A stretch of DNA of 64,000 nt from Candidatus Moraniibacteriota bacterium (lineage in GTDB: Bacteria > Patescibacteriota > Minisyncoccia > Moranbacterales > UBA1568), in the NCBI GenBank assembly GCA_028711705.1, contig JAQTRS010000002.1, forward strand, positions 137,617 through 201,616. Reading direction: 5' to 3'. The position numbers and the translations under genes are program-made. The notes beneath the pieces are model-generated. The model searched no databases and had not been told where the DNA came from. It saw only the letters and a program-made list of their open reading frames with translations. Shown here one piece after another: positions 1 through 57,492 of the stretch (its first letter is position 1; the number at the start of each line of letters is the position of its first letter).

Positions 1-2448
1 GATACTCGCGTCGCGGCCATAGCGAAGGCGAGAGAGTTCTTTGAGGTAATGCCCTAGCTCGATATCGCCCCGGACGGGCGCATAGGTTTTCATATTGAAA
101 GGCCTCGTGAGTTCATTGTTCATGAGAAGACGCGCGAAACAATTCCGGTTATCGACATTGACCAGATCCTGGGATGTGAAGACAGGCGCGAACTGCTTTT
201 CCAGGAACTCGGCATCCTCGGGTCCGACCCGGAATACCACGAGCGACCCGACGTTCCCGAACACCGCCTTGGAAATCTCCTCCTTGAGCTGTCCGATGAA
301 CTGATGCGCGAGCGTGAGAATCAAGCGATACTTGCGGGCCTCGGAAAGGATCTGCGCGATGGAATTGGTCGTCACGTTCTGGAACTCATCCAGATAGACA
401 TAGAAGTCTTTGCGTTCGTCCTCGGGAATATCCGTTCGCGAAAGCGCGCCCATCAGGATCTTCCCCACGATGACCATGCCCAATAAGCGGGCATTGATCT
501 CACCGAGCTTTCCCTTGGAAAGATTCACTAAAAGAATCTTACCATCATCCATCAGCTGACGGAAATTGACCGTGCTTTTCTGCTGGGAAATAATCGGACG
601 CATCATATCATTGGAAGTGAAGGTCGTGAGTTTGGAGGTAATATAGGGAACCATATTGGCCAAGGCTGCCTCGCCGCCAGCCTTTTCCGCCTCCTTCGTC
701 CAAAAATCCACCACGGTCGGATTAGTGCAATGCGAAAGCTTCATCTTGCGGAAATCGGGATCCGCCAACACCTTGGAAATCTCCATCAGCGTCGAGCCGC
801 TCTTCGGATGATCCATGATCAAAAGCATAGCGTTGCGCATATACTGCTCGAACATCGGACCTCCCGTCGCCTTCAGGTCGTACAACTGATCGAAGATGCC
901 TATCATCTCATTGATAACGAAGGTCTTCTGCTCCGGGTGCGCCGGGTCGTATTCGAGCAAATTCAAACCGAACGGCCGCTCCATATCGGACGGATCGAAA
1001 ACAATCACGTCTTCGGCGCGTTCTTTGGGAATAGACATCAGGATGTCCTCGATAGCATCGCCGTGCGGATCGATAAAGCAGAATCCCTTACCGGAAGCGG
1101 CATCTTTCTTGGCTAATTCCTGCAAGAACACCGACTTTCCGACACCCGTCTGCCCCACCACATACATATGCCGGCGCCTGTCGACATCGGTGATCCTGAT
1201 ATCCACCTGCGAGCCACGGTAGTCATTATACCCGAGCGATATCCCCTCCTTCGGGATATTGACCGGCGGCGGAGCAGCCCCCGCTTTGAGCCATTTTATC
1301 TTCGGCGTTTCGGTGGTCGAGATGGGCAGATGGAAAAAGCTGGCAACCTCTTCCGTGGTCAGTATCATCGCATCATCCTCGTCAAAATTACGGAAAATAT
1401 AGTCATACACGATCTCCTTCATCACACGACCCTTCTTGCGATTCTTGACCTGGAAATGATTGACGCCATGATTCTCAAACTGGGAAAAGGCATTCTCCAT
1501 ATGCCCCAAAATCTCATCCGCGCGATACTGAGTAGCGGCAGAGGTGATCAATCGCACGTTCACCGAGAAGGCGGACTTACTGGATTTGGCATCGATAGAC
1601 TTCACTAATTCCTGCTCCTCCGGTGTCAGCTGGATCACCTTTTCGCTTTCACCAAGCTTCTCTTTTTTCCTGGAAGAAAAAACGGCCTGAAACACCCCCT
1701 TGGTCAGTTCGGCACCGATTTCGCTTGCCAGCGATTGATGCGCATACTTGAGCTGCTTGCCCTGTTGCATCTTGTGAGCGATCCGCTTGCCGAGCTTGCG
1801 CCATTCTAAACTTGCTGGGACCAGCACGATCTGAATCACCGCACCTTCCTCTATCGTATCGAGCTTGCTTAAAGAATTTGAAATCTCATTAAGCGGATCG
1901 ACTTCGAGCGACTTATACGTTTTGAGCGGCAGCGCATAGATATTCTTGAGCCCGAGCGTGGAAACGGACGTGAAGCTCTTCGGAGAAAAAATCGTATAGT
2001 CGGTGATCTTTTCGACGGAAGCGTTGGGAAAGAAGCTATGGATTTGCTTTTCGATGCTTTCCCGGAACTTCTTGGGCACGGCCATATAAAAAAGAATCTC
2101 TTCACTCGTCGACGGATTCGCGAGCTCGAAGACGATCTGCGGAGCATGGTACAAAAGACGCTTGAACCACGAGACGGTATTCTTCATATTGGAAAGCGAT
2201 CCCAGGAATTGTTCCATGGAACCGATTTCCTCGCGCCACTCGTCCGGCTTCACGATATCGTCTTTCTTCTTATTGATCTTGCTGATCTTGATCATCTCAA
2301 GATCCATATTGAGCGAACGATTCAATTCGAATCGGAAACGAAAGAAGCTGTGCACTATCAAAAAAAGTCCGCTCAGCAGGAAGACGGCGGCACAGGCAAT
2401 CGTCAGCGGGACGAGAAAAGTGTTCAAATCAAGGTTTTCTGCACTCAT
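1..2448 (-). CDS. Type IV coupling-protein-like P-loop ATPase (TrwB/TraD/VirD4 family), 3' end outside window
   Basis: Manual minus-strand translation is open from ATG (complement 2446-2448) to position 1; it is absent from the ORF track because no in-window stop exists. N-terminal TM helix (LVPLTIACAAVFLLSGLFLIV). Walker A HMYVVGQTGVGKSVFLQEL followed by GFCFIDPHGD (TrwB-like ivDPnGD). Walker B FYVYLDEFQN. C-terminal ARKYRLILTLAHQFIGQL. Confidence 0.6.
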   Translation of the reverse strand, partial: MSAENLDLNTFLVPLTIACAAVFLLSGLFLIVHSFFRFRFELNRSLNMDLEMIKISKINKKKDDIVKPDEWREEIGSMEQFLGSLSNMKNTVSWFKRLLYHAPQIVFELANPSTSEEILFYMAVPKKFRESIEKQIHSFFPNASVEKITDYTIFSPKSFTSVSTLGLKNIYALPLKTYKSLEVDPLNEISNSLSKLDTIEEGAVIQIVLVPASLEWRKLGKRIAHKMQQGKQLKYAHQSLASEIGAELTKGVFQAVFSSRKKEKLGESEKVIQLTPEEQELVKSIDAKSSKSAFSVNVRLITSAATQYRADEILGHMENAFSQFENHGVNHFQVKNRKKGRVMKEIVYDYIFRNFDEDDAMILTTEEVASFFHLPISTTETPKIKWLKAGAAPPPVNIPKEGISLGYNDYRGSQVDIRITDVDRRRHMYVVGQTGVGKSVFLQELAKKDAASGKGFCFIDPHGDAIEDILMSIPKERAEDVIVFDPSDMERPFGLNLLEYDPAHPEQKTFVINEMIGIFDQLYDLKATGGPMFEQYMRNAMLLIMDHPKSGSTLMEISKVLADPDFRKMKLSHCTNPTVVDFWTKEAEKAGGEAALANMVPYITSKLTTFTSNDMMRPIISQQKSTVNFRQLMDDGKILLVNLSKGKLGEINARLLGMVIVGKILMGALSRTDIPEDERKDFYVYLDEFQNVTTNSIAQILSEARKYRLILTLAHQFIGQLKEEISKAVFGNVGSLVVFRVGPEDAEFLEKQFAPVFTSQDLVNVDNRNCFARLLMNNELTRPFNMKTYAPVRGDIELGHYLKELSRLRYGRDASI

Positions 2449-2495
2449 TGTTTTTGTTTTTAGGGAGGATGCGCGTATGTTTCGACTTCCTTTGG

Positions 2496-2918
2496 TTACT
2501 CCGCTATCAATCCGTTCTGCTTGAGGGATTCATAAAACTTATTCGCCAAATCGTCATGCATCTGATCAAGAACGTAGAAATCATTCAGACGTCGAGCGAC
2601 CTTGACGGCATGCACCACGCCTTTCGCGACGGCCAGATCCACCAGCTGCGCTACCTTGGAATCGGCATCCGTCTGAAGAGCGACCTTGTCGGCATCCTGA
2701 TGGATAGCATCATCATGAGCTCCGGTGCTTGGCAGGGCCGTAAGGATACGCTGATACAAGATCTCGCTTTCGCTTTTCACATCCGTCACCTTCTCAGCTG
2801 AAAATTCGGGCGTGCCGATATTCTCGAGCGTATTCCCGCTCATCCCTTCCAGCACGTGACGTTCCTTGGCAGCACTCCCTTCGATCGGTTCGGTGTAGGC
2901 ATTTTTTTCTTCAGGCAT
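2496..2918 (-). CDS. hypothetical protein (140 aa), same operon as the ATPase
   Basis: ORF track; co-directional and tightly spaced between 2935..3237 and the ATPase start; no recognisable motif. Confidence 0.4.
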   Translation of the reverse strand: MPEEKNAYTEPIEGSAAKERHVLEGMSGNTLENIGTPEFSAEKVTDVKSESEILYQRILTALPSTGAHDDAIHQDADKVALQTDADSKVAQLVDLAVAKGVVHAVKVARRLNDFYVLDQMHDDLANKFYESLKQNGLIAE

Positions 2919-2934
2919 AGGTATGGATTTCAGT

Positions 2935-3237
2935 TTATTTATCTCCCTTCATCTCCGACTTGAATTCAGCAACAATCTTTTCTACCATCGCATCATAATC
3001 GGCAATCCTACTCTTTATGAAAGCTTCTATTTCGGTTTGTTCCGGCTTCTGCTCGAGCAGCTTCTCATACTCATCCATGCCGGTCTCGCCGAGGTTCTCC
3101 ATCGTATCGACAAAAATCCGTTTCATGAGAACTTCCGTCATATTGCCAAGGATCTCATCCTGCTTCTGCATCGGCAGTACGCCCAAATCGAATTCATCGA
3201 TAAGCTCCTGTCTGAGTTGTTCGTATTGTAGTGCCAT
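2935..3237 (-). CDS. small acidic helical protein (100 aa), hypothetical
   Basis: ORF track; 18-nt gap to downstream ORF; acidic, Glu/Lys-rich helical composition. Confidence 0.45.
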   Translation of the reverse strand: MALQYEQLRQELIDEFDLGVLPMQKQDEILGNMTEVLMKRIFVDTMENLGETGMDEYEKLLEQKPEQTEIEAFIKSRIADYDAMVEKIVAEFKSEMKGDK

Positions 3238-3273
3238 ATGATAGGGAAATAATGATTGATTACTCGTGTTGTC

Positions 3274-6200
3274 TTATGCTTTCGCGGCATTGACGGCATT
3301 CGCCACCTTGGCAACCCATTGAAGCATCGTCTTATCCGGATCGATCTTGGGCATATTCTCGCCCAATGCTCCCGCATACTTCGCCATGACCGCCAGGACT
3401 TTCTTATACTGCCCGGATTGATCGGCCCGAATCTGCTCAAGTGTAAGGTTCTTCATGTCCTGCCAGACACTCTGTTTCCCTCCGGCCAATTCGCCCATAA
3501 GCCCATGAGGAGTCGCGAGACGGATAATTTCCGCATTTTGCTCGGCTGTCAATCCGACGCCACTCATTTCGAATTCTCCGGTATGCATATTCATCTCCGG
3601 CACGGCTGCTTGCGCAGTATCCGCCGAATGCTTGACGACCTCCGCATTTCCGAACACATCGGTCGGTTGCGCCGAGAAACTTTCAGAAGCAGGCCCGTAT
3701 CCGAATACATCGGTCGGTACGGACGCTGTTTGAGGCTCAACATGTCCTGCCACAACTCCTGCATGATGCTCCATCAGATTGACGGCCGATGCCATGACTT
3801 TGGAATGTATGACAGTAGAATGGTCGGCGACCGCGCGCCCGATATTTTTGGTAATGTCTTCTATATGCAGTCCATTGGCCGACAAAGCTATCTTTTCTCC
3901 ACCCACCACATGATCAAGACTTTCCAGCGTCACGCCGGCGTGATCGTGCACATAATCTATCACCATCCTGTGTGCCATCTTTCCGGCTTCCAATTTATCA
4001 TGGCCGCTTGCCACCAAATGATGGATAAGCTGTCCTTCAATACTTTGCCCCGTACCGGCCTGGATAGCAAGTTCGATCGGCTTTTCCATGTGCTCCGTCG
4101 CATTTTCCACAATAGCCCTTGCAAGCGGAGCATTCTCTATCGGCGGCATCGATGCGGTCGGCGATACCTCGGCCGCCGAACCGAACACCTGGAATTTCTC
4201 CATCAGATACTGAGGCGCCCCGAAACCGAGGAAGGCACCTGCCGCAAAACCGGCCGCCGTGCTGCGGGTACGGCTTTTCATCATACTATTGAGCTTGGTG
4301 TCGATAGTCCCGACACTGACGGCCAGACGCTCCTGTACCTGACGTATCATATCCTCAGGGTTCTGTGTGAAGGCCATTTCTTTTTGCGCATCACGGATAC
4401 TGGCATCGAATTCTTTTTGGGAAGTTTTCTGAGATCGATCCTCACCGAATTGGAAAATGCCTCGGCCAGCGACCGCGCCGCCGAATCCACGACGCGCCAA
4501 GAAAGCGGCACTGGCGGCTCCCGCACCCACGGTCATGCCCAATGCGGCACCACCAGCTATCATAACCGCTGAAAAAGCAAGGCGTTCCTTCAAGGATAAT
4601 CCACGATACCAATCCACCGTCTTTTGGACGGCGCCCATCATCCAATCCGGTGTTTTCACATTAACCCGGGCATCATACACATTGACCCGTTCCTGCACTT
4701 CGATCTCCCTCAATACCTCCACGAGATTTTTCTTCAGAAGCTCCTCAGAAGAGCCGCTCTGTATGCGCGCCATCTCCAAACGAGCATTGGTATAGTCCGT
4801 CAGGGCGGACTGATAAGCCTCCTTCATCGCGATCACGTCCTCGTCGATATCCTTAAAGAGATTCTTGCCGAAGAAGCGGCGTACCTTATCCCGGGCGGTC
4901 GTCTGCTTATAATCCATCCGCACATACTCCGATCGAGCAGCGTCCACATGTGCCTTCATCAGCGCAATCTCTTCAATCTGATCATCAAGCAAGAATTCTT
5001 CTACGGATACTTTTCCTCCGAATAGCTGCTCATTCGAAACGGCTTCATTCTCGGTAAGTTCCTTTTCCGATACCGCATGACCAACCATTTCTTCGCTGTC
5101 TGACTCAAGCTCCTGACTTCCTTGCACCCCTTCTTCCTTATCGGCAGCCGGTTTGAGTGTTTCGTCTTGCGCGGAGAGATTTTCCATCGCTTCATGAACA
5201 GGAGCATCCGTACCCTGTTGCGATTCCAAAAGCTCCGCTGCCGTCATCAATGAAACTACCTCACCAGCCGTTTCTTTTTTCACACCGGCTTCCTGATCAG
5301 TCACCCCGGACACCTGCTCCATCTTTTCAGTCTCCTCGTGTTCAGGCTGGCTGTCCACAATCGCCTCAGGCACCGCCGCAACATCCTCAAACGGCTCCTT
5401 CTGCATTTGGTGTGCTTTCAGTTCCGCAGCCAAAACACCCGGGAGATTCCTTGCTACCGTTTTGGAATGCGGAGCCTTATCCAATCCGAGAGAAGTCATC
5501 ACTGTTTGAATGTCACCACCCTCGATAACTTGCACTGCAGCCCGCCTGATATTGTCGGATAACTGAGTTATATATTTTTCTGTCTTGTGCGCTCCTTTGA
5601 ATTTCACGAGATGTCCCTGCGACAAATACGCCCGCAATTCATCGCTTTTCGGTTCAAAGGCCTGTATCGCTTCAACATCCTCTTCACGAACTTCAGGGGC
5701 ATCCGTATCGGCCACGATGATTTCCTTTTGGACCGAAGTCTTCTTGACACCCTGCTCCGAAACAGTCTTTTCAAAAGGACTCTTCGTAGCATCGGACGCC
5801 TCCATAGCGGAAGATACCACTTCTTTTATCGCCGTCTGGTCATCAGAATTCACCTTATCTTCCAATGCACTGACAGATGATTCATCTGTTGTCGCCTGCT
5901 CCAGTAATGTCGATCCACCTTCCGGGATGATTCTTTCGGTAACGATGCTTCCATCTGCGCTCACAGTGGGTTCTTTTTCCACGGCAACTTTTCCGGACAT
6001 AGCAGGAAGACTGTCTTCGATACCCTGGATAGTGAAAGGGACGAAGGCGGACGTTTCAGATTTTTCCTGATTCCCTTGCGCATCCAAAGTCACCTTGTGT
6101 CCGCGCCTTGCCAGTGTCGCTAGCTTGAGCCGAAGCCCTTGTAATTCCACGTAAGCACCGAACCGATCCGCAGGAAATTCCTGAAGCGCGTCCTTGCCGT

Positions 6201-6528
6201 CCCTGGACCGCACCAAAAACGTATCACTTGGCGCGTCGTACTGGGCGATCACATCTTTTGTTCCGTCTATATTCACAAGCGCCACCGGCTTGCCACCATT
6301 CGCCTTCAATCCCAAAACGATGCTTGCGGCCGATTCGGCAGACCGACTCCTCGCATACAAATCCATCAATTGCTCATCCGTTTTATTAAGATCGATGGCC
6401 TTCACATCGGGAAGATTGCTTTCCGATGTCGCAGGAACATCCTCAGCTGTCTTTATTTTAAGATCATGCAATAACGGTCCCAATAGATCCGCCATCGTTC
6501 CGTGTACTGGCTTCGTTTTTTCCGACAT
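3274..6528 (-). CDS. large acidic membrane protein (1084 aa), hypothetical
   Basis: ORF track. Two Gly/Ala-rich hydrophobic hairpins mid-protein (LAFSAVMIAGGAALGMTVGAGAASAAFLARRGFGGAVAG; TAAGFAAGAFLGFGAPQYL), long acidic low-complexity N-terminal half, internal tandem PTDVFG repeat. First gene of the operon ending in the coupling ATPase. Confidence 0.6.
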   Translation of the reverse strand: MSEKTKPVHGTMADLLGPLLHDLKIKTAEDVPATSESNLPDVKAIDLNKTDEQLMDLYARSRSAESAASIVLGLKANGGKPVALVNIDGTKDVIAQYDAPSDTFLVRSRDGKDALQEFPADRFGAYVELQGLRLKLATLARRGHKVTLDAQGNQEKSETSAFVPFTIQGIEDSLPAMSGKVAVEKEPTVSADGSIVTERIIPEGGSTLLEQATTDESSVSALEDKVNSDDQTAIKEVVSSAMEASDATKSPFEKTVSEQGVKKTSVQKEIIVADTDAPEVREEDVEAIQAFEPKSDELRAYLSQGHLVKFKGAHKTEKYITQLSDNIRRAAVQVIEGGDIQTVMTSLGLDKAPHSKTVARNLPGVLAAELKAHQMQKEPFEDVAAVPEAIVDSQPEHEETEKMEQVSGVTDQEAGVKKETAGEVVSLMTAAELLESQQGTDAPVHEAMENLSAQDETLKPAADKEEGVQGSQELESDSEEMVGHAVSEKELTENEAVSNEQLFGGKVSVEEFLLDDQIEEIALMKAHVDAARSEYVRMDYKQTTARDKVRRFFGKNLFKDIDEDVIAMKEAYQSALTDYTNARLEMARIQSGSSEELLKKNLVEVLREIEVQERVNVYDARVNVKTPDWMMGAVQKTVDWYRGLSLKERLAFSAVMIAGGAALGMTVGAGAASAAFLARRGFGGAVAGRGIFQFGEDRSQKTSQKEFDASIRDAQKEMAFTQNPEDMIRQVQERLAVSVGTIDTKLNSMMKSRTRSTAAGFAAGAFLGFGAPQYLMEKFQVFGSAAEVSPTASMPPIENAPLARAIVENATEHMEKPIELAIQAGTGQSIEGQLIHHLVASGHDKLEAGKMAHRMVIDYVHDHAGVTLESLDHVVGGEKIALSANGLHIEDITKNIGRAVADHSTVIHSKVMASAVNLMEHHAGVVAGHVEPQTASVPTDVFGYGPASESFSAQPTDVFGNAEVVKHSADTAQAAVPEMNMHTGEFEMSGVGLTAEQNAEIIRLATPHGLMGELAGGKQSVWQDMKNLTLEQIRADQSGQYKKVLAVMAKYAGALGENMPKIDPDKTMLQWVAKVANAVNAAKA

Positions 6529-6575
6529 ACTTTTATTTTTGAAAATCTACATCCATGAAGAAAATCTATGCTATA

Positions 6576-6603
6576 ATTGTAACATAGAACCAAGAGGCGT
6601 CAA
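6576..6603 (-). promoter_or_regulatory. sigma70-like promoter for the 3274..6528 operon (TTGACG-N16-TACAAT on minus strand)
   Basis: Minus-strand -35 TTGACG (plus 6598-6603), 16-bp spacer, -10 TACAAT (plus 6576-6581), about 50 nt upstream of the ATG at 6528. Confidence 0.3.
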
Positions 6604-6633
6604 ACAAAATAAGTCAAAGAAAAATACACAACT

Positions 6634-8259
6634 ATGCACGTACCGAACCAATCCGCCGTCAGGCTTATGAGCCTGGCATGCCTTGTTGTCATACTCTCGC
6701 TCGCCCTCTTCCTGCGTGCGTATAATATCGAAAATATCCCAACCGGGCTCTATCCGGACGAGGCCGTCAATGCGACCGATGCCCTGCACGCGCTCAAAAC
6801 CCATCACTTCAAACTCTTCTACGAAAATAACCAGGGCCGTGAGGGATTGTTCATTAACCTGCAGGCATTGGCGCTTGGCGTATTGGGCGTCAGTGTGTTC
6901 GCGCTCAAATTCTGGTCGATAGTGTTTGGCACCCTCACCGTCTTAGGGATGTACCTTTTTGCCAAAGAAATCTGGCAAAAGCGCTCTATCGCCCTTATAA
7001 CAGCATATTTTACCGCCATCTCCTTTTGGGCCATCAACTTTTCCCGCATCGGATTCCGAGCCATCATGGTGCCGTTCATCCTCTCTTTCTCTTTTTATTT
7101 CTTCTTCCGCGGGCTTCGCACCAAAAGCTTCATAAGCTTCGCGCTATCCGGCTTCATTTTCGCCCTCGGCCTCCACACCTATATCGCCTTCCGCCTTACT
7201 CCGCTCATCCTCATCTTCTTCCTCATCGGACTCATGCTCTCCTATGAAAATTTCCTCAAGCTCTATTGGAAACACGCCCTCACCTTCATCTTCTTCGCCT
7301 TCATAGCGGCCGTGCCGATGTTTTTCGATTTCTCTGCGCATCCCGAGCATTTCAATTCACGGGCCGCCCATGTCTCCATCTTCTCTCCCGAGATAAACCA
7401 TGGCAATTTCTGGGGAACACTCACCAAAACACTGGGACTGAGCCTTATCAAATACAACTTTGTCGGCGATCAGAATTGGCGCCACAACTATCCTCCCTAC
7501 GCGATTCTCGATCCCATTACCGGCATCGCCTTCCTGGTCGGGTTTCTCTACCTCATCCCCCGTACCGTAAAGCTCCTCGTCAGACGATTGAGGGACAAGG
7601 ACCGCAACAAGGAGCTCGCGCTCAATTTCCTGTTCATCGGGTGGTTTTTCACTATGCTGATGCCGGAATTCCTCACCGATGAGGGGCTGCCGCATGCCCT
7701 TCGGGCTATCGGCACCATCCCGGTCGTTTTCCTGATCGCTTCCACACCCTTTCTGTGGATAGGTGAACGTCTCAGATCAGCACAGCCCGGCATGAAAGTC
7801 ATCATCCTTTCCTTCATCGCCTTCACTCTCATCGGAACCGGCGTCTTCAACGGCGTCAAATATCTCATCTTCTACGCTAACAATCCCAAGCAACACGAAG
7901 CCTTCAATGAAAACTACAAGAATATGGCCCAATACCTCCTGGCACTGCCGGTCGAGGTGAAAAAATATGTCTATGTCAGCTCCGGCGGCATCCTCCCTGA
8001 AAACAACCTGCCCATCGCCGCCCAACCCATCACGTTCTTCACCTACCGAAAGGATATCAATCTATCTTTCATCCTTCCGAACGCGGACGCTCCCGAAGGA
8101 ACACTCAATATTCAGGCGCCATCGACTATCGTGCTCATGAATAACGACGAGGACTTCATCTCATCGGTCCAAACACAGTTCCCGCACACCGTACAAGAAA
8201 CCGTCGACCTCCATCCCGGTTTCAAAAGCGAATTCCGAGTCCTTCACGTTGTCCAATAA
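6634..8259 (+). CDS. GT-C family membrane glycosyltransferase (PMT_2/ArnT-like, phospholipid-carrier-dependent)
   Basis: ORF track; polytopic membrane protein; N-terminal loop DE motif (GLYPDEAVNATD) typical of the ArnT/PMT (GT39/GT83) family. Confidence 0.6.
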   Translation: MHVPNQSAVRLMSLACLVVILSLALFLRAYNIENIPTGLYPDEAVNATDALHALKTHHFKLFYENNQGREGLFINLQALALGVLGVSVFALKFWSIVFGTLTVLGMYLFAKEIWQKRSIALITAYFTAISFWAINFSRIGFRAIMVPFILSFSFYFFFRGLRTKSFISFALSGFIFALGLHTYIAFRLTPLILIFFLIGLMLSYENFLKLYWKHALTFIFFAFIAAVPMFFDFSAHPEHFNSRAAHVSIFSPEINHGNFWGTLTKTLGLSLIKYNFVGDQNWRHNYPPYAILDPITGIAFLVGFLYLIPRTVKLLVRRLRDKDRNKELALNFLFIGWFFTMLMPEFLTDEGLPHALRAIGTIPVVFLIASTPFLWIGERLRSAQPGMKVIILSFIAFTLIGTGVFNGVKYLIFYANNPKQHEAFNENYKNMAQYLLALPVEVKKYVYVSSGGILPENNLPIAAQPITFFTYRKDINLSFILPNADAPEGTLNIQAPSTIVLMNNDEDFISSVQTQFPHTVQETVDLHPGFKSEFRVLHVVQ

Positions 8260-8273
8260 TTTTCCCCATTCCT

Positions 8274-10241
8274 ATGCAGAATATCAAAAAGCACGCAGGC
8301 CTCATCCTCTTCATCATCCTGGGCATCTCCTTCATACTGTCGGTCGGTGCCCTGAAGGATGATACAGCCACCTTCGATGAGCGGGGCCATATTCCCGCCG
8401 CCTATTTCTATGTCCGTTACGGGGATATGCGTCTCAATCCGGAACACCCACCCCTCCTCAAGGATCTGGCGGGACTGCCGCTATTATTCATACAGCCGAC
8501 TTTCCCGCTGACGAGCGAACTTTGGACCGATGGCATCACCAGGGAATGGCAATTCGGAACCGCCATGTGGTCAACCTGGCATATCGGCACCGAGTTCCTT
8601 TATAAAAGCGGTAATGATGCAGAGCTCCTGATTTTCCTCCTCCGCCTCCCCATGGTGCTCCTGAGTCTCCTCTTGGGTTTCTTTGTCTACCGATTCACCA
8701 AGGAAATTGCCGGAACGGTTGCCGGACTCTTTGCTGCGTTTCTCTTCGCTTTCGATCCCAATGTTTTGGCGCATAATCACTACGTCACCACGGACCTGGG
8801 TATCGCGGCATTCATTTTTATCGCGACCTACTATTTCGTTCACTTCCTCAAGCATCCTTCCCCGAAACACATCGCCCTTGCCGGAATCACGCTCGGCCTC
8901 GCCCAATTGGCCAAATTCTCCGCCATCCTCCTTATCCCGCTTTTCGGACTGCTCGTCATCATCGCCGGCCTCACCAGACAACCCTCATCGCGGATCACCT
9001 CATCGCTTGGCGCCTTCCGCCGAAAAACGCTCGGCTCTTTCGTATTCCACTACATAGGCATACTCTGCATCGCTTTCTTCGTCATCTGGATGGGCTACCT
9101 TGCCAATACCTGGAATATGCCCGCTCAAAAAACCGTATTGCATGCCAACCTCGTCTTTGCTGGCGGTGCCGCACCGAAAACATTCGCGCGCGACACCGTC
9201 GTCACCCTCGCCCAAACGAAAGGGCTCGAACCGATCGCGCACTATATGCTCGGCGTCTTCATGGTCTTCTCCCGTGTCACCGGCGGCAATTCATTCTATT
9301 TCCTCGGCGATATGCCGGACCATGCCTCCAAGGCATATTTCCCGACCATCTTCTTCCTCAAGGAAACCCTTCCGCTTGTCTTCCTCATCGTTGTCACGGC
9401 ACTTTATACCCTCTGGCGCATCATACGGATATCCTCATCCAAAAACATCTCCTTGATCCGCGGATTCTCGCAGTCTTTCCAGCGGCACATCCCGCAGTAC
9501 ACCATGCTGAGCTTCGTTATTTTCTATGCATATCTGAGCATCATGGGCAATCTCAATATCGGCTTCAGACACCTTTTCCCGATACTGCCATTCATATACG
9601 TCTTAGTCACCATCACGCTTTTCAATTTTATCAAAACCAGATCCGACGCTCCGGCGCATATCTATTGCCCGACCAAGCATATGTACCACATCCTCTTGGG
9701 AGTCTTCGCCTTTTGGATTGCCGCCATCCCAGTCATCGCCTATCCGAATTACCTCTCGTATTTCAACGAGATTGTCGGCGCAAAAAACGGCCACACCGTC
9801 GCCGTCGATTCCAATTATGACTGGGGACAGAACCTTAAACGATTGAAAATATGGATCGACACCTACAACCGATGCATCGCTCAAGAAGACGATTTCCTTG
9901 AGCGCTCCTGCGATTCGCTCACAGAGGACGGCTCCTTCCCGACACAGATGCCGATCACTGATCCTCATATCGACTACTACGGCGGCAGCGAGGTCAGCTA
10001 CTACTTCCCGGAAGGCACGTATACCGCATGGCATTCCGGCGATGCCCCGACATCGGGATGGTTCGCTCTCTCCGCCACCTTCTTCGAGGAAAACCTGCAC
10101 AAACCCCTCAAGCCCGGTGAGACCGACTACTCCTGGCTCCTAAGCTACCAGCCTATCGGACGGGCCGGCAATTCTATGTTCATCTTCTATGTCAGCCCCG
10201 AAAGCCTCAAGCCATCCGCTCCATCACAACATTCAAACTAA
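8274..10241 (+). CDS. GT-C family membrane glycosyltransferase (PMT_2/ArnT-like), paralog 2
   Basis: ORF track; TFDERGHIPAAYFYV DE motif; multiple TM helices; 14-nt gap after the previous GT-C gene. Confidence 0.65.
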   Translation: MQNIKKHAGLILFIILGISFILSVGALKDDTATFDERGHIPAAYFYVRYGDMRLNPEHPPLLKDLAGLPLLFIQPTFPLTSELWTDGITREWQFGTAMWSTWHIGTEFLYKSGNDAELLIFLLRLPMVLLSLLLGFFVYRFTKEIAGTVAGLFAAFLFAFDPNVLAHNHYVTTDLGIAAFIFIATYYFVHFLKHPSPKHIALAGITLGLAQLAKFSAILLIPLFGLLVIIAGLTRQPSSRITSSLGAFRRKTLGSFVFHYIGILCIAFFVIWMGYLANTWNMPAQKTVLHANLVFAGGAAPKTFARDTVVTLAQTKGLEPIAHYMLGVFMVFSRVTGGNSFYFLGDMPDHASKAYFPTIFFLKETLPLVFLIVVTALYTLWRIIRISSSKNISLIRGFSQSFQRHIPQYTMLSFVIFYAYLSIMGNLNIGFRHLFPILPFIYVLVTITLFNFIKTRSDAPAHIYCPTKHMYHILLGVFAFWIAAIPVIAYPNYLSYFNEIVGAKNGHTVAVDSNYDWGQNLKRLKIWIDTYNRCIAQEDDFLERSCDSLTEDGSFPTQMPITDPHIDYYGGSEVSYYFPEGTYTAWHSGDAPTSGWFALSATFFEENLHKPLKPGETDYSWLLSYQPIGRAGNSMFIFYVSPESLKPSAPSQHSN

Positions 10242-18636: not shown

Positions 18637-18723
18637 ATGGCTCAGCAAGTTTCTACACAACATAAAATCCCGCCTTTTGAGGGGCGAGACTCTATGTATC
18701 CGATACGCGCTGTCGTATGGAAA

Positions 18724-21700
18724 TTACTTCTTGCCTTCTCGGAAACCGGTTCCGGCTGGAATCAATCGTCCGATGATAACGTTTTCCTTGAGGCCTCGCA
18801 AGCGATCCTCCTTGCCGGCGACGGCGGCATTGATCAGAACGCGGGCCGTCTCCATGAACGATGCGGCAGAAAGGAAGCTCTCGGTCGAAAGCGCCACTTT
18901 AGTGATACCCAGGATAAGTGCCATTCCGGTCGCCTCCTGCCCCTTGGTTGCCCTCGCCTCTTCGTTCGACTCCTCGAACTGGACGCGCTCCACGACATCG
19001 CCCGGCAGAAGCATCGTGCTTCCCGGTTCCGATACCTGGATACGAGAGAGCATCTGACGGATAATCACTTCGATGTGCTTGTCATTGATACCTTCACCCT
19101 GAGATGCATAGATTTCCTGGATCTCGCGGATGACGTAACGGTGCAGTTCTTCGCGGCCCATAACGGTGTAGAGCTTGCGCAAGTCGATGTGTCCTTCGGA
19201 AAGAACCGATCCTTGACCAATCAGATCACCCTCTTGAACCTTGAGCGTCGTACCGGCAGCGATCTGATATTCCTTCACGCTTTCGTCCTGTGCCTGCACT
19301 TTAACGACCACCACTTTGCTGCTTTCCTTGACGATGGATACCACACGTCCGGCCTCTTCGGCGATCAGCGCCTCGCCTTTGGGCTGACGAGCCTCGAAAA
19401 TTTCCTCGACACGAGGGAGGCCCTGCGTAATGTCCGATCCGGCGACACCGCCGATGTGGAAGGTACGCATCGTGAGCTGCGTTCCCGGTTCTCCGATAGC
19501 TTGAGCCGCCACGACGCCGACAGCCTGGCCGAGCTGCACCAAAGCGCTTCGTCCGAGATCCAAACCGTAACATTTCTGACAAACGCCCCTCATGCTCTTG
19601 CAGGTCACGACGCTTCGAATCTTCACCTTGTCGATGTTCAAATCCTCGATCGCCTGTCCCTGCGTCTTGGAGATAAGATCCCCGGCTTTGGCCACGACAT
19701 GTCCGGAAGCATCCGACACGTCCACCAATGCGACACGGCCCTCGACGCGTGTTGCGAAGCTCTGCCCGATGATATCGGAATCGGCCCTGTACAGGTAGGC
19801 GCCTTCGGTATCGCCACAATCGGTTTCGCGGATGATGATATCTTGTGCTACATCGACGAGACGGCGGGTCAAATAACCGGCGGTCGCAGTACGAAGAGCG
19901 GTATCCGCCATACCCTTACGGGCACCGTGCGTCGAGATGAAATACTCCAACACATTGAATCCTTCCTTGAACGAGCTCTTCACAGGAAGTTCGATCGTCT
20001 CACCTGTCGGACCGGCCATCAAGCCTTTCATACCGGTCATCTGCACGACGACCGATTCACTACCGCGGGCCTTGGAATAGACCATCGAGTACACCGGTCC
20101 TTCCTTATCCAAAGAGGCGCGCACGGCATCCGTAATCTTGTTCTTGGCTTCGTTCCAGATTTCGATCACGCGGTTGCGGCGTTCTTCATTGGTCAAAAGA
20201 CCCATGTTGTACTGACCTTTCACCTCGGCCACCTTGGTTTCAGCAACCGCCATGATGTCCTTCTTTTCTGTCGGCACCTTCAGGTCGTCCATACCCCAAC
20301 TGATTCCGGACTTACTGACGAAACGGAATGCCAAATCCTTCACGCGATCCGCGAAAAGAGCGGCCTCGTCCTGTCCAACCGACATCATGATGGTGATCAT
20401 CAGGTTCTTGAGGTCCTTCTTGATCAATTCCTCATTCACAAAACGCAATGTCTCCGGAAGAATATCATTGACCAACACGCGTCCGGCCGAAGTTTCGATG
20501 ATTTCACCGTTCCACAACAACTTGATGGCGGCGTTAATGGCGATCACTTCCGACTGATAGGCCAAGATAACCTCTTCCATCGAACTGAAGATCTTGCCTT
20601 CGCCCTTCATACCCCTCTTGATGTGCGAGAGGTAATACATACCGAGCACCATATCCAAAGACGGGGTCACGATCGGATCTCCCGAAGCCGGCTTGAGGAG
20701 ATTCTTCGCGGAAAGCATGATTTCGGCGCTTTCCTTGCGAGCATGATCAGTCAGTGGCACATGCACCGCCATCTGATCACCATCAAAGTCCGCATTGAAA
20801 GCGGTACACACCATAGGGTGCAGACGGATAGCCTTACCTTCGATCAATACCGGCTGGAAGGCCTGAATGGACAGACGATGAAGGGTCGGTGCGCGGTTGA
20901 GCAAAACATAGTGATGCTCGATGATCTGGTCGAGGATTTCATAGGCCTCTTCCGCTTCAGCATCCACCATCCTGCCGGCGGTACGCACATTATGAGCATA
21001 CTCGCGATCGATGAGCTTGTTGATGATGAACGGCTTGAAAAGTTCCAGCGCCATTTTCTTGGGCAGACCGCACTGATGCAGTTTGAGCTGCGGACCCACG
21101 ACGATAACGGATCGTCCCGAGTAATCCACACGCTTTCCCAAAAGGTTCTGACGGAAACGGCCCTGCTTTCCCTTGAGCGCGTCGGCCAGCGACCGAAGCG
21201 CACGGCGCTGTCCGGTCGAAGCGGCTGTCGATGCCTGTCCGCGACGGGCGCTGTTATCGAAGAGCGCATCCACCGCTTCTTGAAGCATGCGCTTTTCATT
21301 GCGCGTAATCACCTCCGGAGCACCGATACTGTTGAGTTTCTTCAGGCGGTTGTTTCGGTTGATGATGCGGCGGTACAGATCGTTCAGATCGGAGGTTGCA
21401 AACCTACCGCCGTCCAGCGCCACCATCGGACGAAGATCCGGCGGGATAACGGGGATGATGGTCGGAAGCATCCACTCCAATTTCAGATTCGCCTTCTTGA
21501 ATCCCTGGAACAATTTCAAACGCTGCAAGGCCTTCTTTCGATCAGGAGATTCATCCTTGTCGAGATTCTCTTTCAAGATTTCGGTGGTTGCATCGATATC
21601 GATCTTGCTCAGTACCTTGCGCACGGCCTCGGCACCGATACCGGCGTGAAACACCTGTCCGAAACGGGTCGAAAGATTGAAATACTCCACTTCGGAGAGG

Positions 21701-22320
21701 ATCTGGAACGGCTGGAGGTTCTTGATATCCTCCTTGGCGGAACGGTACTGATCCTTCAGGTCATCCATGCCGGCATCGACCGCCTTCTCGTCGTCGCCGT
21801 GATTGTTCTTGACTTCCTTCTGTTTGGACCTGTACTCGCGCTCGAGCTGTTCGACGGCGCGCTCCTTTTCTACCTCATCCACCTCGGTGATGATGTAGGC
21901 GGAAAAATAGATGACCTTCTCCAATTCCTGCGGGGAGATTCCCAAAGCGAGACCGATCTTGGATGGCACGCCACGGAGGAACCAGATATGCGAAACCGGC
22001 GCGGCGAGCTTGATGTGCCCCATGCGCTCACGGCGAACGATGGAACGGGTCACCTCGACTCCGCACTTATCGCACACGATGCCTTTGTAACGGATGCGCT
22101 TGTATTTTCCGCAGTAACACTCCCAGTCCTTGGCCGGACCGAAGATTTTTTCGCAAAACAGACCGTCGAGCTCATAGCGCTGAGTTCGATAGTTGATGGT
22201 CTCGGGCTTGGTTATTTCACCATGCGACCACTCCATCATCTGGTCAGGACTCGCGAGGCTGAGGCGGACGCTCTCGAAGTCGCTTACTTTCGTAATGTTG
22301 TTTTCCATGATCTTGTTCAT
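18724..22320 (-). CDS. rpoC: DNA-directed RNA polymerase subunit beta-prime
   Basis: ORF track; 1198 aa; zinc-binding CxxC, NADFDGD catalytic motif. Confidence 0.97.
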
Positions 22321-22373
22321 AAGTTTAGGTTATTGAAGCGCCGGGCGTAGCAAGTACGCCCCGCGTTATATAA

Positions 22374-30596: not shown

Positions 30597-31301
30597 TTAC
30601 TGATCTTGTGAGATTGCCCGAAGAAACTGCTCTGCCAGGGCTAAGTCTTGGGGATTGCCGACCGGCAGCCACCTTCGCGTCACTTTGACTTGTACCGGAT
30701 GCTTCTGACCCATAACAACCAGTGTCTGAGGCAGGCCGTATTCCGTCTCGGATATTTTGACGGGAGGATAGGTGAAAAAATCCGTGCTCAGGACATAGGC
30801 CCCCGTATTGACCAAGCCTTCACCTAATTCGTGCGGACGCTCCACCACACCCGCCAAATGATGCCGCTCATCGACCGTCACCAGACCGAAGGCGGACGCA
30901 TCCTGCGTATGGTACCCGAGCAGTGCAAGCGGATAGTGCATGATCTTTTCGATATCGTCCGGATGATAGAGGTCGTCGCCCATCGTCACCAAAAACCGCT
31001 CGCGGACGATGTCTTTCACGAGATAGATGGCGCCCGCCGTCCCGTTAAGCTCGGTCTGCTCGACATAGGTTATCTTTTTTCCGTTCCACTTTGTGCCGAA
31101 ATAGTCCTGGATAATTTCCTTCTTGTATCCGACAACGAGAATGACTTCCTCAACACCTTCCGGGAGCAGGCGTATCTTATGCGCCAGCAAAGGCAGGCCG
31201 AGCACACAGATCATCGGCTTCGGAGTATTGTTCGTCAATTCGCCCATACGGGTACCGCGCCCGGCGGCCAAAATTACGCACTGCATAGGCTTAGACAACA
31301 A
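30597..31301 (-). CDS. sugar-phosphate nucleotidyltransferase (NTP_transferase fold)
   Basis: ORF track; N-terminal LAAGRGTRMGELTNNTPKPM signature. Confidence 0.75.
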   Translation of the reverse strand: MLSKPMQCVILAAGRGTRMGELTNNTPKPMICVLGLPLLAHKIRLLPEGVEEVILVVGYKKEIIQDYFGTKWNGKKITYVEQTELNGTAGAIYLVKDIVRERFLVTMGDDLYHPDDIEKIMHYPLALLGYHTQDASAFGLVTVDERHHLAGVVERPHELGEGLVNTGAYVLSTDFFTYPPVKISETEYGLPQTLVVMGQKHPVQVKVTRRWLPVGNPQDLALAEQFLRAISQDQ

Positions 31302-34300: not shown

Positions 34301-34326
34301 CCTCTTTGGGACTTTTTTTCAAGCAA
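31291..34326 (-). CDS. leuS: leucine--tRNA ligase with an inserted Nudix-hydrolase-box segment
   Basis: ORF track; class-I HIGH (PYPSGDGLHVGH), KMSKS, AVPAHDERDFAFAKKYDLP. 1011 aa versus a typical about 800-880. Perfect Nudix box GGGLEEEEDVIQAAVREIEEETGY inserted after the AVPAHDERD motif. Confidence 0.93.
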   Translation of the reverse strand: MLEKKSQRGYDKGNTLNTFLMAGQYSAKTIEKKWQDRWAKQGDFQASDQSGKEKCYVLDMFPYPSGDGLHVGHVENYTATDIYSRFKRLQGFEVLHPIGWDAFGLPAENFAIKTGVHPDQKTHENIANFTRQIKSLGISYDWSREIDTSSPEYYKWTQWLFLFLYKNGLAYRKQASVNWCPSCQTVLANEQVVDGVCERCKTEVVQKDLKQWFFKITDFIEDQQFEGRDVSGLISGLKKIDWPESTKKAQQHWIGRSEGAMVRFHISQQPARIATRNVAGGSTINSQQKTEDKQGQEDIEVFTTRVDTIFGCTYVVVAPEHPLVSQQLTNNSQQGISNKAEVEKYLEATKKKTELERTELAKDKTGVKLEGIEAINPFTGEAVPVFVADYVLGNYGTGAVMAVPAHDERDFAFAKKYDLPIRISIEPVTGTVRENEEFRRSIVAVVEDAKTGKFLSINWGEKLGGNLFIGGGLEEEEDVIQAAVREIEEETGYKHVKLVAVSEKIHHHYFAASKNVYRNIEATGLHFRLADKEKAEQRLEADEHNKFTVEWITREDAFAKVADPLHRYLFDKFIQGKIFAEDGVLADSGAFSGLASQAAREKITQWLEEKKLGEKKVNYRLRDWLVSRQRYWGAPIPIIYCDTCGEQPVPEQDLPVSLPMDVDFRPTGESPLTRSESFHDVLCPKCGEKARRESDTMDTFVCSSWYYLRFVDPKNTEAFADPEKLAKWLPVDVYMGGAEHTVLHLLYARFFAKALRKYGLIDFDEPFMKLRHQGMVLAEDGRKMSKSLGNVVNPDDVVGQFGADSLRLYEMFMGPLEDAKAWKTDNLVGPRRFLEKVWRMGEKVSQQSAINRKQGTENNALRTLLHKTIQKVTQDIEEFRFNTAVSSLMILVNEMDRQAKISQDDFETFLLLLSPFAPHIAEELWERLGHAGSITEGVWPKFDPKLLQDETVDIVVQVNGKLRAKIAVASGAQQKDVETLALQDEKVALHIQGKTIRKVIFVPNRLMNIVV

Positions 34327-55041: not shown

Positions 55042-57492
55042 TTAATTTGTCGGCGCGATTTCCCTCCATCTATTGATGGTAGAACAGGATCCACAGGTCT
55101 GCGTCACATTGGTGCAGGAGGCACCGCAATTACTGCCTGGGACAACGGAGGTAGCGCCCGTACAGCTATTGGTCTGGATACATGTCTTCTGTGTTGTCGT
55201 AATAGTCGTACCGCAATTGCTTGCCCCGCAAGTCGCTCCGGCTGCAGAATTACAGCTATAAGAGAAAGTCGGCGTACATGCCGATGGTGTTGACGACACG
55301 TATACTGTTGCGAGCGCTGTTGCAGAATTATCCTCCGCGACGTTCGTACAGTTCAATACATATGTGGTTGTTGCTGTTGGAGACACTGTCTGCGTACCGT
55401 TGAGCGGCTTGGATGAGGCAACGAAAGTCCCTCCCATACCCATGCACCGGGCAGCGCCGGAAGTCGACCAGGTGAGCGTTGATGTCTGACCTGAGATTAT
55501 CGATGTTGGATTGGCGGTAAACGATATGACCGGCGCAGGAGATGGCGGTGGAGCAGGAGCAGGAGCAGGAGCAGGAGCTGGAGCGGGTGCTGGAGCGGGT
55601 GCTGACGAAGACACGGTATAGGTCATTGTCGCCGAACCCACCCGGTAGATGGATCCTCCAGGACTGCCGCACTGACTCGAATTACCGACCCAGGAAGCGC
55701 ACGCCGGTTGGCTTGATGGCGTATAAACCGAATAGTATCCGCGCCATGTCACCGTGTATGTCCCAGGCGTGGTTGGAGCTGCCCATGTTTTCGGGGTGGA
55801 ACTTTGCGCCCAGTATTTGTGATCCGGATTCGGATCGGAAGCAACGTCTTGCCAAGAACCGTTCAAAACAATCATTTCTCCAGTGCCATGATCCACCGTC
55901 CCTCCTCCGCCGAGAGTATTGGAACAGCTTGCGGCAGAAAAAGTCGCGGTCGCTATAACCGTTTCTCCCGGAGCATAGGTCGATTTATTGAGTCCTGCAC
56001 TGAAACTCGTCGTATACGTTCCCTGCCACCCGCCGTAGCTTTTCACCTGTACCGGTATCGACCAAGAATCCCACGAGGCGCTCGCCTGGCCACCGCTCAC
56101 GAATGCGCCTGCACCGATAAGCAATCCGAGCAACACATTCATTGATGACTTTTTTTGCTTCCTGATAAGGTATACTAAAAGGGCTAGGATGAGCAGGAAG
56201 GCTGCGCTGTACACCAATGCACCATTGGGTCTCTTCTGCACCATTGAAGGAGTACCCGTGGATCGTATGGCATAGGTATTTTCTGCCAGTACCTTTCCGG
56301 ACGGATCGATGATCTTGGCTACCAGGCTCGGATTAAGACAGTCAGTCGTGATCGAAAGCATCAAGTGTTCCGTGGCACCTCCGTTTGCTGCGTCCAATTC
56401 CTTCGAAAAAGGGGCGATACAAGATTTGTTCTGATCATTTTTGAGAGAAACAACCAAAGAAGTGTCCGTAGCGAATCCTGTCGGCTGCATACGTGAATCA
56501 GGAAAATTATCCGCCGAACCGGTCCATGCCAATACAAGGGCTGCTTCATCACCCTTAGCGTAGTAGTCCTTATCTAGAGTCAGATTCTGAATGGTGGCGC
56601 TCGATCCTCGGAGCACATAGTGAACGCGCACTCCGGAAGAAACCTGTCCACCCTTATCGTTTACGAACGTAAGCACCACATCATAGGCCTGAGGTTCGAT
56701 CATCTTCGGAAGATACGCATCGAACTTCACTTTTTTCCCGGGAGAAAGCGACAGAGCCGGCAGCTTTTCCGATCCCATATCCTTACCGAATGTCGATCGA
56801 TAGTACACCTGCAGTACGGGCGTTACCGAAACATCTGTCGTAAATTCGCTGATGATGGAGCAGTGCATGCTCAGGGTTTCCTCCTGATTGATATCCACAC
56901 CCTGCGAAAGACTGTATAGAGCATCGTTTTCGCCGACGGTCAAATAGCAGTCAGCATCATTGATAGCCACTTTTTCGCTGGAACCCTTAAGGGAAATGGC
57001 TGGTGTCTGAACCGCTGCAAGCATAAGCCCGTCGGTATTCTTGACCTGCACCTCTACGATATAGGATCCGTTAAGATAGGTCGGCGCCGTATATTCCACC
57101 TCTCTATGCACGGATGCACCCGCAGAAAGATTGAGCATATCATCGCGATACACCTTCTGATCGACGATGGAAAGGTCATCCGATTTCAGGAGATTAACGG
57201 CATACAAAACATTCGGCTGCACGCCAGCCTCATTGGAAATATCGAAGGCGAGCGCAAAAGTATTACCGTCCTGATTCTTTATCTCGATATCGCCCAAACC
57301 AACGGAGGCGATGCGGTCCTTGTCCGTAAGCATCACGGCATCCGCAGCGCTTTGCGACGACATCTCGGTGATCTGCTTCTCAAAAGGCGTCATTTCCGCT
57401 GCCGACACGAAAGGTGCTGCCGCAAAAAAACCAAGAGTTACCACCGCAAACATCAAGAAACGTTTCGGTGTCCGCATTGCGAGCGTCCGCAT
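55042..57492 (-). CDS. large cell-surface protein with signal peptide, internal TM, (PA)n linker and Cys/Thr-rich C-terminal domain
   Basis: ORF track; N-terminal signal MRTLAMRTPKRFLMFAVVTLGFFAAAPFVSAAE; PAPAPAPAPAPAPAPPPSPAP encoded by a GCAGGAGCA tandem DNA repeat (55550-55610); C-terminus CGASNCG..CTGATS..CGASCTN. Confidence 0.6.
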   Translation of the reverse strand: MRTLAMRTPKRFLMFAVVTLGFFAAAPFVSAAEMTPFEKQITEMSSQSAADAVMLTDKDRIASVGLGDIEIKNQDGNTFALAFDISNEAGVQPNVLYAVNLLKSDDLSIVDQKVYRDDMLNLSAGASVHREVEYTAPTYLNGSYIVEVQVKNTDGLMLAAVQTPAISLKGSSEKVAINDADCYLTVGENDALYSLSQGVDINQEETLSMHCSIISEFTTDVSVTPVLQVYYRSTFGKDMGSEKLPALSLSPGKKVKFDAYLPKMIEPQAYDVVLTFVNDKGGQVSSGVRVHYVLRGSSATIQNLTLDKDYYAKGDEAALVLAWTGSADNFPDSRMQPTGFATDTSLVVSLKNDQNKSCIAPFSKELDAANGGATEHLMLSITTDCLNPSLVAKIIDPSGKVLAENTYAIRSTGTPSMVQKRPNGALVYSAAFLLILALLVYLIRKQKKSSMNVLLGLLIGAGAFVSGGQASASWDSWSIPVQVKSYGGWQGTYTTSFSAGLNKSTYAPGETVIATATFSAASCSNTLGGGGTVDHGTGEMIVLNGSWQDVASDPNPDHKYWAQSSTPKTWAAPTTPGTYTVTWRGYYSVYTPSSQPACASWVGNSSQCGSPGGSIYRVGSATMTYTVSSSAPAPAPAPAPAPAPAPAPPPSPAPVISFTANPTSIISGQTSTLTWSTSGAARCMGMGGTFVASSKPLNGTQTVSPTATTTYVLNCTNVAEDNSATALATVYVSSTPSACTPTFSYSCNSAAGATCGASNCGTTITTTQKTCIQTNSCTGATSVVPGSNCGASCTNVTQTCGSCSTINRWREIAPTN

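Follow-up and report, generated by a model that had tools for sequence, protein, structure and literature searches.

Patescibacteria rely on other cells, and their type IV secretion system (T4SS), encoded by a cluster from which a coupling protein is absent, is essential for epibiotic growth. In S. epibionticum the T4SS cluster holds no recognisable coupling protein (PMC10633639). The survey of Quinonero-Coronel et al. 2025 (PMC12102498) reports VirB4 in 2417 of 3035 Patescibacteria genomes (~80%), together with 5713 VirD4-like homologues in 2918 genomes. The latter are widespread, at about two per genome, and rarely lie near virB4 (148 cases only); the authors suggest that the type IV coupling protein (T4CP) homologues of Patescibacteria may have been exapted. 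Orphan T4CP homologues are already known in this group from that report. Here we describe a locus built around such a protein, on a stretch of 64,000 nucleotides hereafter called the window (Candidatus Moraniibacteriota bacterium, contig JAQTRS010000002.1, positions 137,617 to 201,616). The first 6603 positions of the window contain four tightly spaced open reading frames (ORFs) on the minus strand, the last of which encodes an ATPase that is almost certainly one of the VirD4-like homologues counted in the survey.

We propose that these genes form a chromosomal module of Patescibacteria that is inherited vertically, is built around an 'orphan' coupling protein and is not a conjugative element; most likely it feeds a T4SS encoded elsewhere. 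We hold this reading with evenly balanced confidence. Three traits of the locus appear to be undescribed: a 140-residue partner of the ATPase that is fused to it in other lineages, the VirB4-like fold of its DUF8128 domain, and a hypervariable neighbour. In the parts searched, PMC12102498 describes no conserved partners, fusion, VirB4-like N-terminal domain or hypervariable neighbour. No mention of DUF8128 or DUF5663 was found in the searchable literature, which is itself incomplete. The locus thereby offers testable candidates for the missing parts of the T4SS: a coupling-type ATPase conserved throughout the Patescibacteria loci sampled, a partner domain supported by fusion, a second small acidic protein and, as a possible cargo, a hypervariable membrane protein of Moranbacteria.

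Family, predicted fold and relatives of the ATPase

The product of the terminal gene is a P-loop ATPase that is anchored in the membrane and belongs to the T4CP (TrwB/VirD4) family. Its identical counterpart at NCBI (P0001, 'TraM recognition domain-containing protein', from Candidatus Moranbacteria) has 821 residues, so only five codons and the stop lie beyond the window; the original prediction, made from the DNA letters, was right to place the 3' end outside, but hardly anything is missing. The motifs that it quoted, GQTGVGKS, IDPHGD and LAHQ..GQL, are all present (Table 1). Three Pfam models of T4CPs match above their cut-offs, if modestly: TrwB_AAD_bind (25.2 against 20.5), TraG-D_C (25.3 against 22) and T4SS-DNA_transf (21.0 against 20.1). 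FtsK_SpoIIIE stays below its cut-off (20.6 bits against 24) and covers only the 26 residues 420-445; HerA_C reaches 12.6 against 22, and DUF87 23.3 against 23.2, spanning residues 412-492 only. In NCBIfam, the matches to TraD and VirD4-like models are far under the cut-offs. Among the VirB4 profiles of Pfam, neither CagE_TrbE_VirB nor AAA_10 matches the protein.

A family profile made from 29 homologues at 30-72% identity finds TrwB as its best solved structure in the PDB (2e-8), followed by DotL (6e-6) and HerA (1e-3), and no VirB4 or TrwK chain at E<=1. Residues G432, G435, G437, K438, D460, P461, G463, D687, E688 and Q716 are invariant in the 29 homologues; such conservation of catalytic residues indicates purifying selection on a gene that is not decaying. 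The family is large, with 5528 clusters at 50% identity (E<1e-30). The nearest homologues all belong to Moranbacteria (Patescibacteria, or candidate phyla radiation), throughout which they are at least 70% identical. The predicted TrwB/VirD4-type assignment is borne out, in the form of a long T4CP clade with a VirB4-like N-terminal domain, and the profile searches do not move the protein to FtsK/SpoIIIE or HerA.

The predicted architecture is that of one transmembrane (TM) helix, a module resembling the VirB4 N-terminal domain (DUF8128) and a T4CP-like motor. Basic residues follow the TM helix, so the remainder of the protein is predicted to be cytoplasmic. In the full-length AlphaFold2 model (pLDDT 86.7), the C-terminal half overlays nearly the whole soluble domain of TrwB, with a Foldseek TM-score of 0.62-0.68 normalised to TrwB; HerA structures rank under T4CPs in both Foldseek and profile searches. 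Unexpectedly, the top full-length Foldseek matches are TrwK/VirB4, and residues 45-400 were therefore modelled alone (pLDDT 85.8). Only 14 PDB chains match this N-terminal model significantly, all of them TrwK/VirB4 (E 6e-7 to 9e-5, TM-score 0.43-0.48); the next match has an E-value of 4e-3 and a poor TM-score.

The ATPase shares with TrwB, VirD4 and TraD-TraG a membrane-anchored P-loop motor recognised by the Pfam T4CP domains, the Walker A context RHxxVxGxTGxGKS...DPxGD, and a Walker B motif followed by the AHQ region. Its predicted motor overlays almost all of TrwBdeltaN70, at a sequence identity of only ~15-17%. Contrary to these proteins, it has one TM helix instead of two and a 350-residue VirB4-like domain between anchor and motor, and it is the product of a chromosomal core gene with no relaxase or T4SS genes nearby. 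With VirB4/TrwK it shares the two-domain layout and, in the models, the fold of the N-terminal domain; it differs from them in the absence of any sequence-level match, in a motor closer to T4CPs and in the lack of VirB3/6/8 neighbours. The N-terminal TM helix is, we presume, reminiscent of VirB3-VirB4 fusions.

Full-length homologues at 22-29% identity, N-terminal domain included, occur in 368 plasmid records, mainly from Bacillus (153 records), Streptomyces (92), haloarchaea and Sulfolobus (11). The MPF-FATA class, within which PMC12102498 places the VirB4 clade of Patescibacteria, has the same range over Firmicutes, Actinobacteria and Archaea. The closest relatives outside Patescibacteria are Bacillus plasmid proteins of 886-913 residues annotated as 'DUF87 domain-containing', homologous over the full length, N-terminal domain included, at 24% identity. 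On the B. subtilis plasmid NZ_CP032854 (24.7 kb), the 886-residue 'DUF87' homologue WP_121549396.1 comes first in a Tcp-like conjugation operon; it is followed by a replication-relaxation family protein, a TcpC-like conjugal transfer protein, a TcpE-family protein, an ATP-binding protein of 848 residues and a conjugal transfer protein of 784 residues. The Patescibacteria profile aligns with the 886-residue protein in hhalign at 100% probability (E 2e-53, 658 columns over both domains) and gives no alignment with the plasmid's 848-residue VirB4/TcpF-like ATPase (probability 2.6%). By gene position and by exclusion, we infer that the homologue is the coupling protein of this Tcp-like system. Unlike the gene in the window, the plasmid genes adjoin a replication-relaxation protein and TcpC/E/F/H-like genes, and their operons have no counterparts of the 140-residue protein, the DUF5663 protein or the large protein described below.

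Bacillus phages encode full-length homologues as well: phage G gp156, CP-51 gp91 and PBC5_050, which correspond to phrog_5156 (E 7e-86) and are 21-24% identical across residues ~80-800. They differ from the window ATPase in being phage-encoded, in early or replication regions, with no homologue of the 140-residue protein. Their neighbours PBC5_049 and CP-51 gp90 and gp92 were tried as partner homologues and rejected, having no match to the models of the 140-residue protein, DUF5663 or the core of the large protein. PBC5 gene 049 (L085:6328-6774) encodes a 148-residue protein that overlaps the phage ATPase homologue on its upstream side; its signal-like N-terminus and two hydrophobic helices give it a VirB2- or VirB3-like look. 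The predicted combination of a VirB4-like N-terminal domain with a T4CP-like motor, common to the monoderm plasmid and phage homologues, bears on the kinship of the two T4SS ATPase families.

Proteins encoded with the ATPase

The four ORFs lie where they had been predicted (Table 1) and encode, from 5' to 3', proteins of 1084, 100 and 140 residues and the ATPase. Their intergenic gaps measure 36, 16 and 47 nucleotides, and no terminator-like site was found on the minus strand within the block, which by its layout we judge to be a real four-gene operon. The TTGACG-N16-TACAAT promoter candidate proposed for it is present, with an extended -10 TG, 48 nucleotides 5' of the first ATG; its score of 10/12 is the top match in positions 1..7000. 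Such consensus sites number 12 where 6.3 are expected, so a match alone does not prove transcription.

Table 1 Features of the four-gene block (positions in the window; residues of the respective protein).
Feature	Position	Strand	Basis or remark
T4CP-family ATPase, 816 of 821 residues in the window	1..2448	-	sequence, profile, model
ATPase, single N-terminal TM helix, residues 10-34	2347..2421	-	sequence, model
ATPase, N-terminal domain, residues 45-400, DUF8128 (PF26449) in orthologues	1249..2316	-	VirB4/TrwK N-domain-like fold predicted
ATPase, TrwB-like motor domain, residues 401-816	1..1248	-	
ATPase, Walker A GQTGVGKS, residues 432-439	1132-1155	-	
ATPase, IDPHGD, residues 459-464	1057-1074	-	
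ATPase, Walker B YVYLDEFQ, residues 683-690	379-402	-	
ATPase, LAHQFIGQL, residues 713-721	286-312	-	
140-residue acidic protein, isoelectric point 4.8	2496..2918	-	adjacency, fusion
100-residue acidic helical protein, isoelectric point 4.3, DUF5663-like	2935..3237	-	sub-threshold Pfam match and orthologues
1084-residue acidic protein, isoelectric point 4.96, no signal peptide	3274..6528	-	no family match
Large protein, conserved core, residues 511-790: helices and two Gly/Ala-rich hydrophobic segments	4159..4998	-	
Large protein, Gly/Ala-rich hydrophobic stretch 1, residues 648-692, ERLAFSAVMIAGGAALGMTVGAGAASAAFLARRGFGGAVAGRGIF	4453..4587	-	
Large protein, Gly/Ala-rich hydrophobic stretch 2, residues 757-776, TAAGFAAGAFLGFGAPQYLM	4201..4260	-	
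Large protein, conserved C-terminal helical module, last ~70 residues	3277..3486	-	
Sigma-70-like promoter candidate TTGACG-N16(TG)-TACAAT	6576..6603	-	consensus match only

We surveyed the neighbourhoods of 80 further ATPase loci from species-representative genomes (Patescibacteria where identifiable), in which ORFs were called and family hidden Markov models (HMMs) built. In 34 of 84 loci a homologue of the 140-residue protein stands directly upstream of the ATPase, at gaps of -31 to 184 nucleotides. In ~20 other loci, of the Nomura-, Taylor- and Paceibacterota type, its domain is fused to the N-terminus of the ATPase in ORFs of 908-968 residues; these fused proteins have no N-terminal TM helix, the 140-residue domain standing in place of the anchor. 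Within the family, the N-terminal half is variable and a C-terminal helical domain of ~55 residues is conserved (KGvxxAvxvAxxlxDpxxLDxxHDxL) and includes an LDxxHD-type motif that never varies. Neither Pfam nor the PDB yields a match to the family. The recurrent position of the protein beside the ATPase in many lineages and this Rosetta-stone fusion are strong evidence of a physical partnership, and we regard the protein as a dedicated cytoplasmic partner of the ATPase.

A different set of Patescibacteria loci (L021, L024, L028, L031, L033, L035, L037, L063, L076 and others) shows the ATPase with other small neighbours: an unrelated protein of ~168 residues upstream (family F7), and downstream a protein of ~215 residues (family F3, with the motif GVFDGQxMIGPDGxxYxVPxNYASKSKLVEGD) and then dnaX. 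F7 and F3 were tried as homologues of the 140-residue protein and rejected, at hhalign probabilities below 1%.

The 100-residue protein, acidic like the 140-residue one as had been claimed, scores 17.4 bits with DUF5663 (PF18908), under the 23.7 cut-off; its orthologues (E ~1e-40 to the family HMM) carry precomputed PF18908 matches. DUF5663 is linked to the ATPase in 16 loci, namely all 12 of the Moranbacteria and four of other lineages, with differing gene orders: DUF5663, 140-residue gene and ATPase in L075 (Azambacteria); a 1019-residue protein, DUF5663 and ATPase in L062 (Doudnabacteria); ATPase, a 584-residue protein, DUF5663 and a 980-residue protein in L034. The fourth is L014. This linkage is moderate evidence for a second small acidic partner, which DUF5663 may be in some lineages.

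The 1084-residue protein, which had been described as lacking any recognisable domain, indeed has no family match in Pfam, NCBIfam, PHROGs or PADLOC. The two Gly/Ala-rich hydrophobic stretches exist as predicted (~648-692 and 757-776), each followed by basic residues; the hairpin topology attributed to them is putative. Residues 1-510 are poorly conserved and gappy. With the family HMM, the protein was found among the surveyed ATPase loci only in 12 Moranbacteria loci, the order being always the same. A word-based search with the full protein returned only itself, and one with the alignment of its conserved core returned nothing, low-complexity words having probably swamped candidates in both. 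The neighbourhood conservation that had been put forward as a check is accordingly mixed: the 140-residue protein is conserved or fused and DUF5663 is present in some lineages, but the large protein is confined to Moranbacteria.

The large gene is a hypervariable slot that evolves far faster than its neighbours. Relative to the closest relative, locus L002, amino-acid identity amounts to 91% for the ATPase, 75% for the PMT transferases encoded next to the operon, 71% for the DUF5663 protein and 56% for the 140-residue protein, and the flanking DNA is 72-76% identical in nucleotides. The large protein retains 28% amino-acid identity over its C-terminal half, and nothing in 3277-6525 aligns at the nucleotide level. 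In L062, L066 and L071 the ATPase adjoins large acidic proteins that are not homologous to this one and have a comparable Gly/Ala-rich hairpin in their interior. We read the large protein as an accessory particular to its lineage, serving either as a membrane platform or, as we favour, as cargo.

Two further observations concern this gene. A 19-nucleotide direct repeat (95% identical, 3649-3667 and 3700-3718) encodes the peptide PTDVFG(Y/N) twice, in the C-terminal part of the protein, and a 438-residue antisense ORF within the gene (3256-4572, +) is most likely a shadow ORF.

Chromosomal setting and proposed role

The genes of the window are those of an ordinary core chromosome: rpoB, rpoC, leuS, glmS, bipA, ATP synthase and PMT-type glycosyltransferases. 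As predicted, the window has no relaxase or VirB4; integrase, VirB6 and VirB8 are not found in its 64 kb either. Its ORFs of at least 600 residues encode RpoB, RpoC, LeuRS, GlmS, BipA, PMT-type transferases and surface proteins, none of them VirB4-like. The first 20 kb contain no tRNA gene, flanking or att-like repeats are absent, and the GC content is uniform across the window, with no compositional island. Gene order around the ATPase is kept among Moranbacteria relatives. There, the region corresponding to that beyond position 1, where a search for VirB4, VirB6 and a relaxase had been recommended, encodes a convergent protein of ~760-870 residues, a 200-residue protein, RmuC, an MraY-like transferase, PrmC and RF-1, and no T4SS gene. 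No relaxase or T4SS gene lies within +/-10 kb of the ATPase in relatives, and no VirB3/VirB6/VirB8-type gene stands beside it in the window or in relatives. In other classes the ATPase has secY-like, adk and map genes upstream and ndk and RNase J downstream, or else cysS upstream and dnaX downstream; this placement among housekeeping genes argues for a core cellular role and against a mobile element. The conjugation or DNA-transfer module first suggested for the locus is not supported, the block lying in core chromosome of conserved gene order, where neither a relaxase nor a T4SS gene is found.

Several neighbours recur. Two PMT_2/ArnT-like glycosyltransferase genes, 6634-8259 (+) and 8274-10241 (+), diverge from the operon; such genes are divergent also in L002, L003, L030, L043-L045, L049 and L050, which include lineages with the 140-residue gene and the ATPase in which the large protein is absent. 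A GtrA-family membrane protein is encoded 3' of the ATPase in L020, L022, L030, L042 and L053. Together, the PMT_2 and GtrA genes suggest a recurrent envelope-glycosylation neighbourhood. The convergent ~760-870-residue protein directly 3' of the ATPase in Moranbacteria has no Pfam match (L003:13534-16011 (-), with equivalents in L001, L002, L005-L008, L012 and L015).

In the orphan-module reading that we favour, the ATPase would form a ring at the membrane and use ATP to recruit and push a macromolecular substrate. Most likely it would serve the Patescibacteria T4SS (the VirB4 cluster), which is encoded elsewhere, in a cluster devoid of a coupling protein. At ~12-15 kDa and with their acidic charge, the two small proteins are similar to secretion adaptors or chaperones and may act as such; the hypervariable 1084-residue protein would be the cargo, which we favour, or a lineage-specific membrane platform.

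Several points weigh against this proposal. The 64-kb window contains no T4SS genes. A VirB4-like N-terminal domain and a single TM helix are foreign to characterised T4CPs. Most lineages lack the large protein, and outside Moranbacteria few proteins with a Gly/Ala hairpin are encoded close to the ATPase: 3 of the 75 large ORFs in its vicinity, against 1 of the 122 farther away, an enrichment so weak that we claim no general partnership of this kind. According to PMC12102498, a T4CP homologue of S. epibionticum, possibly of another subfamily, is non-essential, the T4SS being essential; and T4CP homologues occur in 2918 genomes against 2417 for VirB4, so some may act without a T4SS.

The main rival explanation is an autonomous DNA translocase that would operate with no T4SS and move DNA over or along the single membrane, for uptake, export or chromosome clearance, like Streptomyces TraB/FtsK or archaeal CedB, the small proteins being regulators. 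We regard it as unlikely, though in its favour the gene is found in more genomes than VirB4 (PMC12102498). Plasmids of Streptomyces and Sulfolobus carry homologues, as do Bacillus phages in their early or replication regions; in many lineages dnaX comes next downstream; and the P-loop has weak NCBIfam matches to CedB and CedD. TrwB-type motors are DNA-dependent ATPases. However, no DNA-binding domain, ComEC, relaxase or clt-like repeat is found nearby, the FtsK_SpoIIIE match is sub-threshold over its 26 residues, and acidic adaptor-like partners beside a hypervariable neighbour better fit protein handling. Moreover, competence in Saccharibacteria depends on ComEC and type IV pili (PMC10633639). 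If the role of the ATPase were confined to pumping DNA as a housekeeping function, the finding would be of modest interest. A separate question is whether the 1084-residue gene is a mere neighbour, a fast-evolving and partly disordered membrane protein on a shared transcript with no functional link. Its restriction to 12 Moranbacteria loci, the word-based searches that returned nothing else, and an ATPase that evidently works in most lineages without it are all consistent with this; yet in all Moranbacteria loci that extend far enough upstream the genes keep their order and close spacing, non-homologous large acidic Gly/Ala-hairpin proteins adjoin the ATPase in Doudna- and Paceibacterota loci, and DUF5663 travels with large ORFs beside the ATPase in L062 and L034. 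We give this explanation a minority chance.

The glycosylation genes suggest another role, in which the ATPase and its 140-residue partner would act in envelope biogenesis or surface-glycoprotein export and the large protein would be a surface or membrane glycoprotein modified by the adjacent PMT-type transferases. PMT_2 genes lie divergent upstream of the 140-residue gene and the ATPase in several lineages, whether the large protein is present or not, GtrA-family proteins are encoded 3' of the ATPase in others, and the large protein evolves as surface-exposed proteins do. This synteny may nevertheless be inherited and is absent in Paceibacteria-type loci with secY-adk-map neighbours; the large protein has no signal peptide; and no route of glycoprotein export is known to employ a T4CP. 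We consider this role improbable. Descent from conjugation, ancestral to the ATPase family, is compatible with an integrated element, conjugative or mobilisable, either whole or in decay, a reading that the evidence largely refutes and that we find barely plausible: relaxase, integrase, VirB4/6/8, tRNA and att-like repeats are absent, GC content is uniform, chromosomal synteny is conserved, homologues are at least 70% identical across Moranbacteria and the catalytic residues do not vary. An anti-phage defence ATPase of HerA or MADS type, to which a PADLOC mad8 match (5e-14) and weak HerA matches might point, is just as remote and was rejected, because the PADLOC matches reach no further than the generic P-loop core, the adjacent genes include no other MADS gene, HerA partner, nuclease or methylase, and the gene belongs to the universal core and lacks the patchy distribution of island genes.

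A more ambitious interpretation would see the four genes as a self-contained host-interaction device found only in Patescibacteria, in which a retooled conjugation ATPase and its adaptors export the giant protein, whose hairpins insert in the host or junction membrane. We think this quite doubtful. The 140-residue protein and DUF5663 would be the adaptors, and the VirB4-like N-terminal domain would reflect the retooling of a conjugation-descended ATPase. Once inserted, the Gly/Ala-rich hairpins, like Inc-type or translocator effectors, might help to build a feeding conduit for the epibiont. If so, the hypervariability of the giant protein would record an arms race with hosts.

Other features of the window

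An ORF of 816 residues at 55042..57492 (-) was considered as a VirB4 or a paralogue of the ATPase and rejected, being unrelated and without a Pfam match; its product, probably a surface protein, has a hydrophobic helix in its interior and a PAPAPAP linker. A 717-residue protein (47254-49407, +) contains three lamin-tail domains and a PKD domain. Opposite rpoC runs an antisense ORF of 1237 residues (18637-22350, +), most likely a shadow ORF. Finally, the leucyl-tRNA synthetase of 1011 residues (31291-34326, -) has an unusual insertion: a NUDIX match (PF00293, E 6e-13) at residues 439-571, just past the editing domain.

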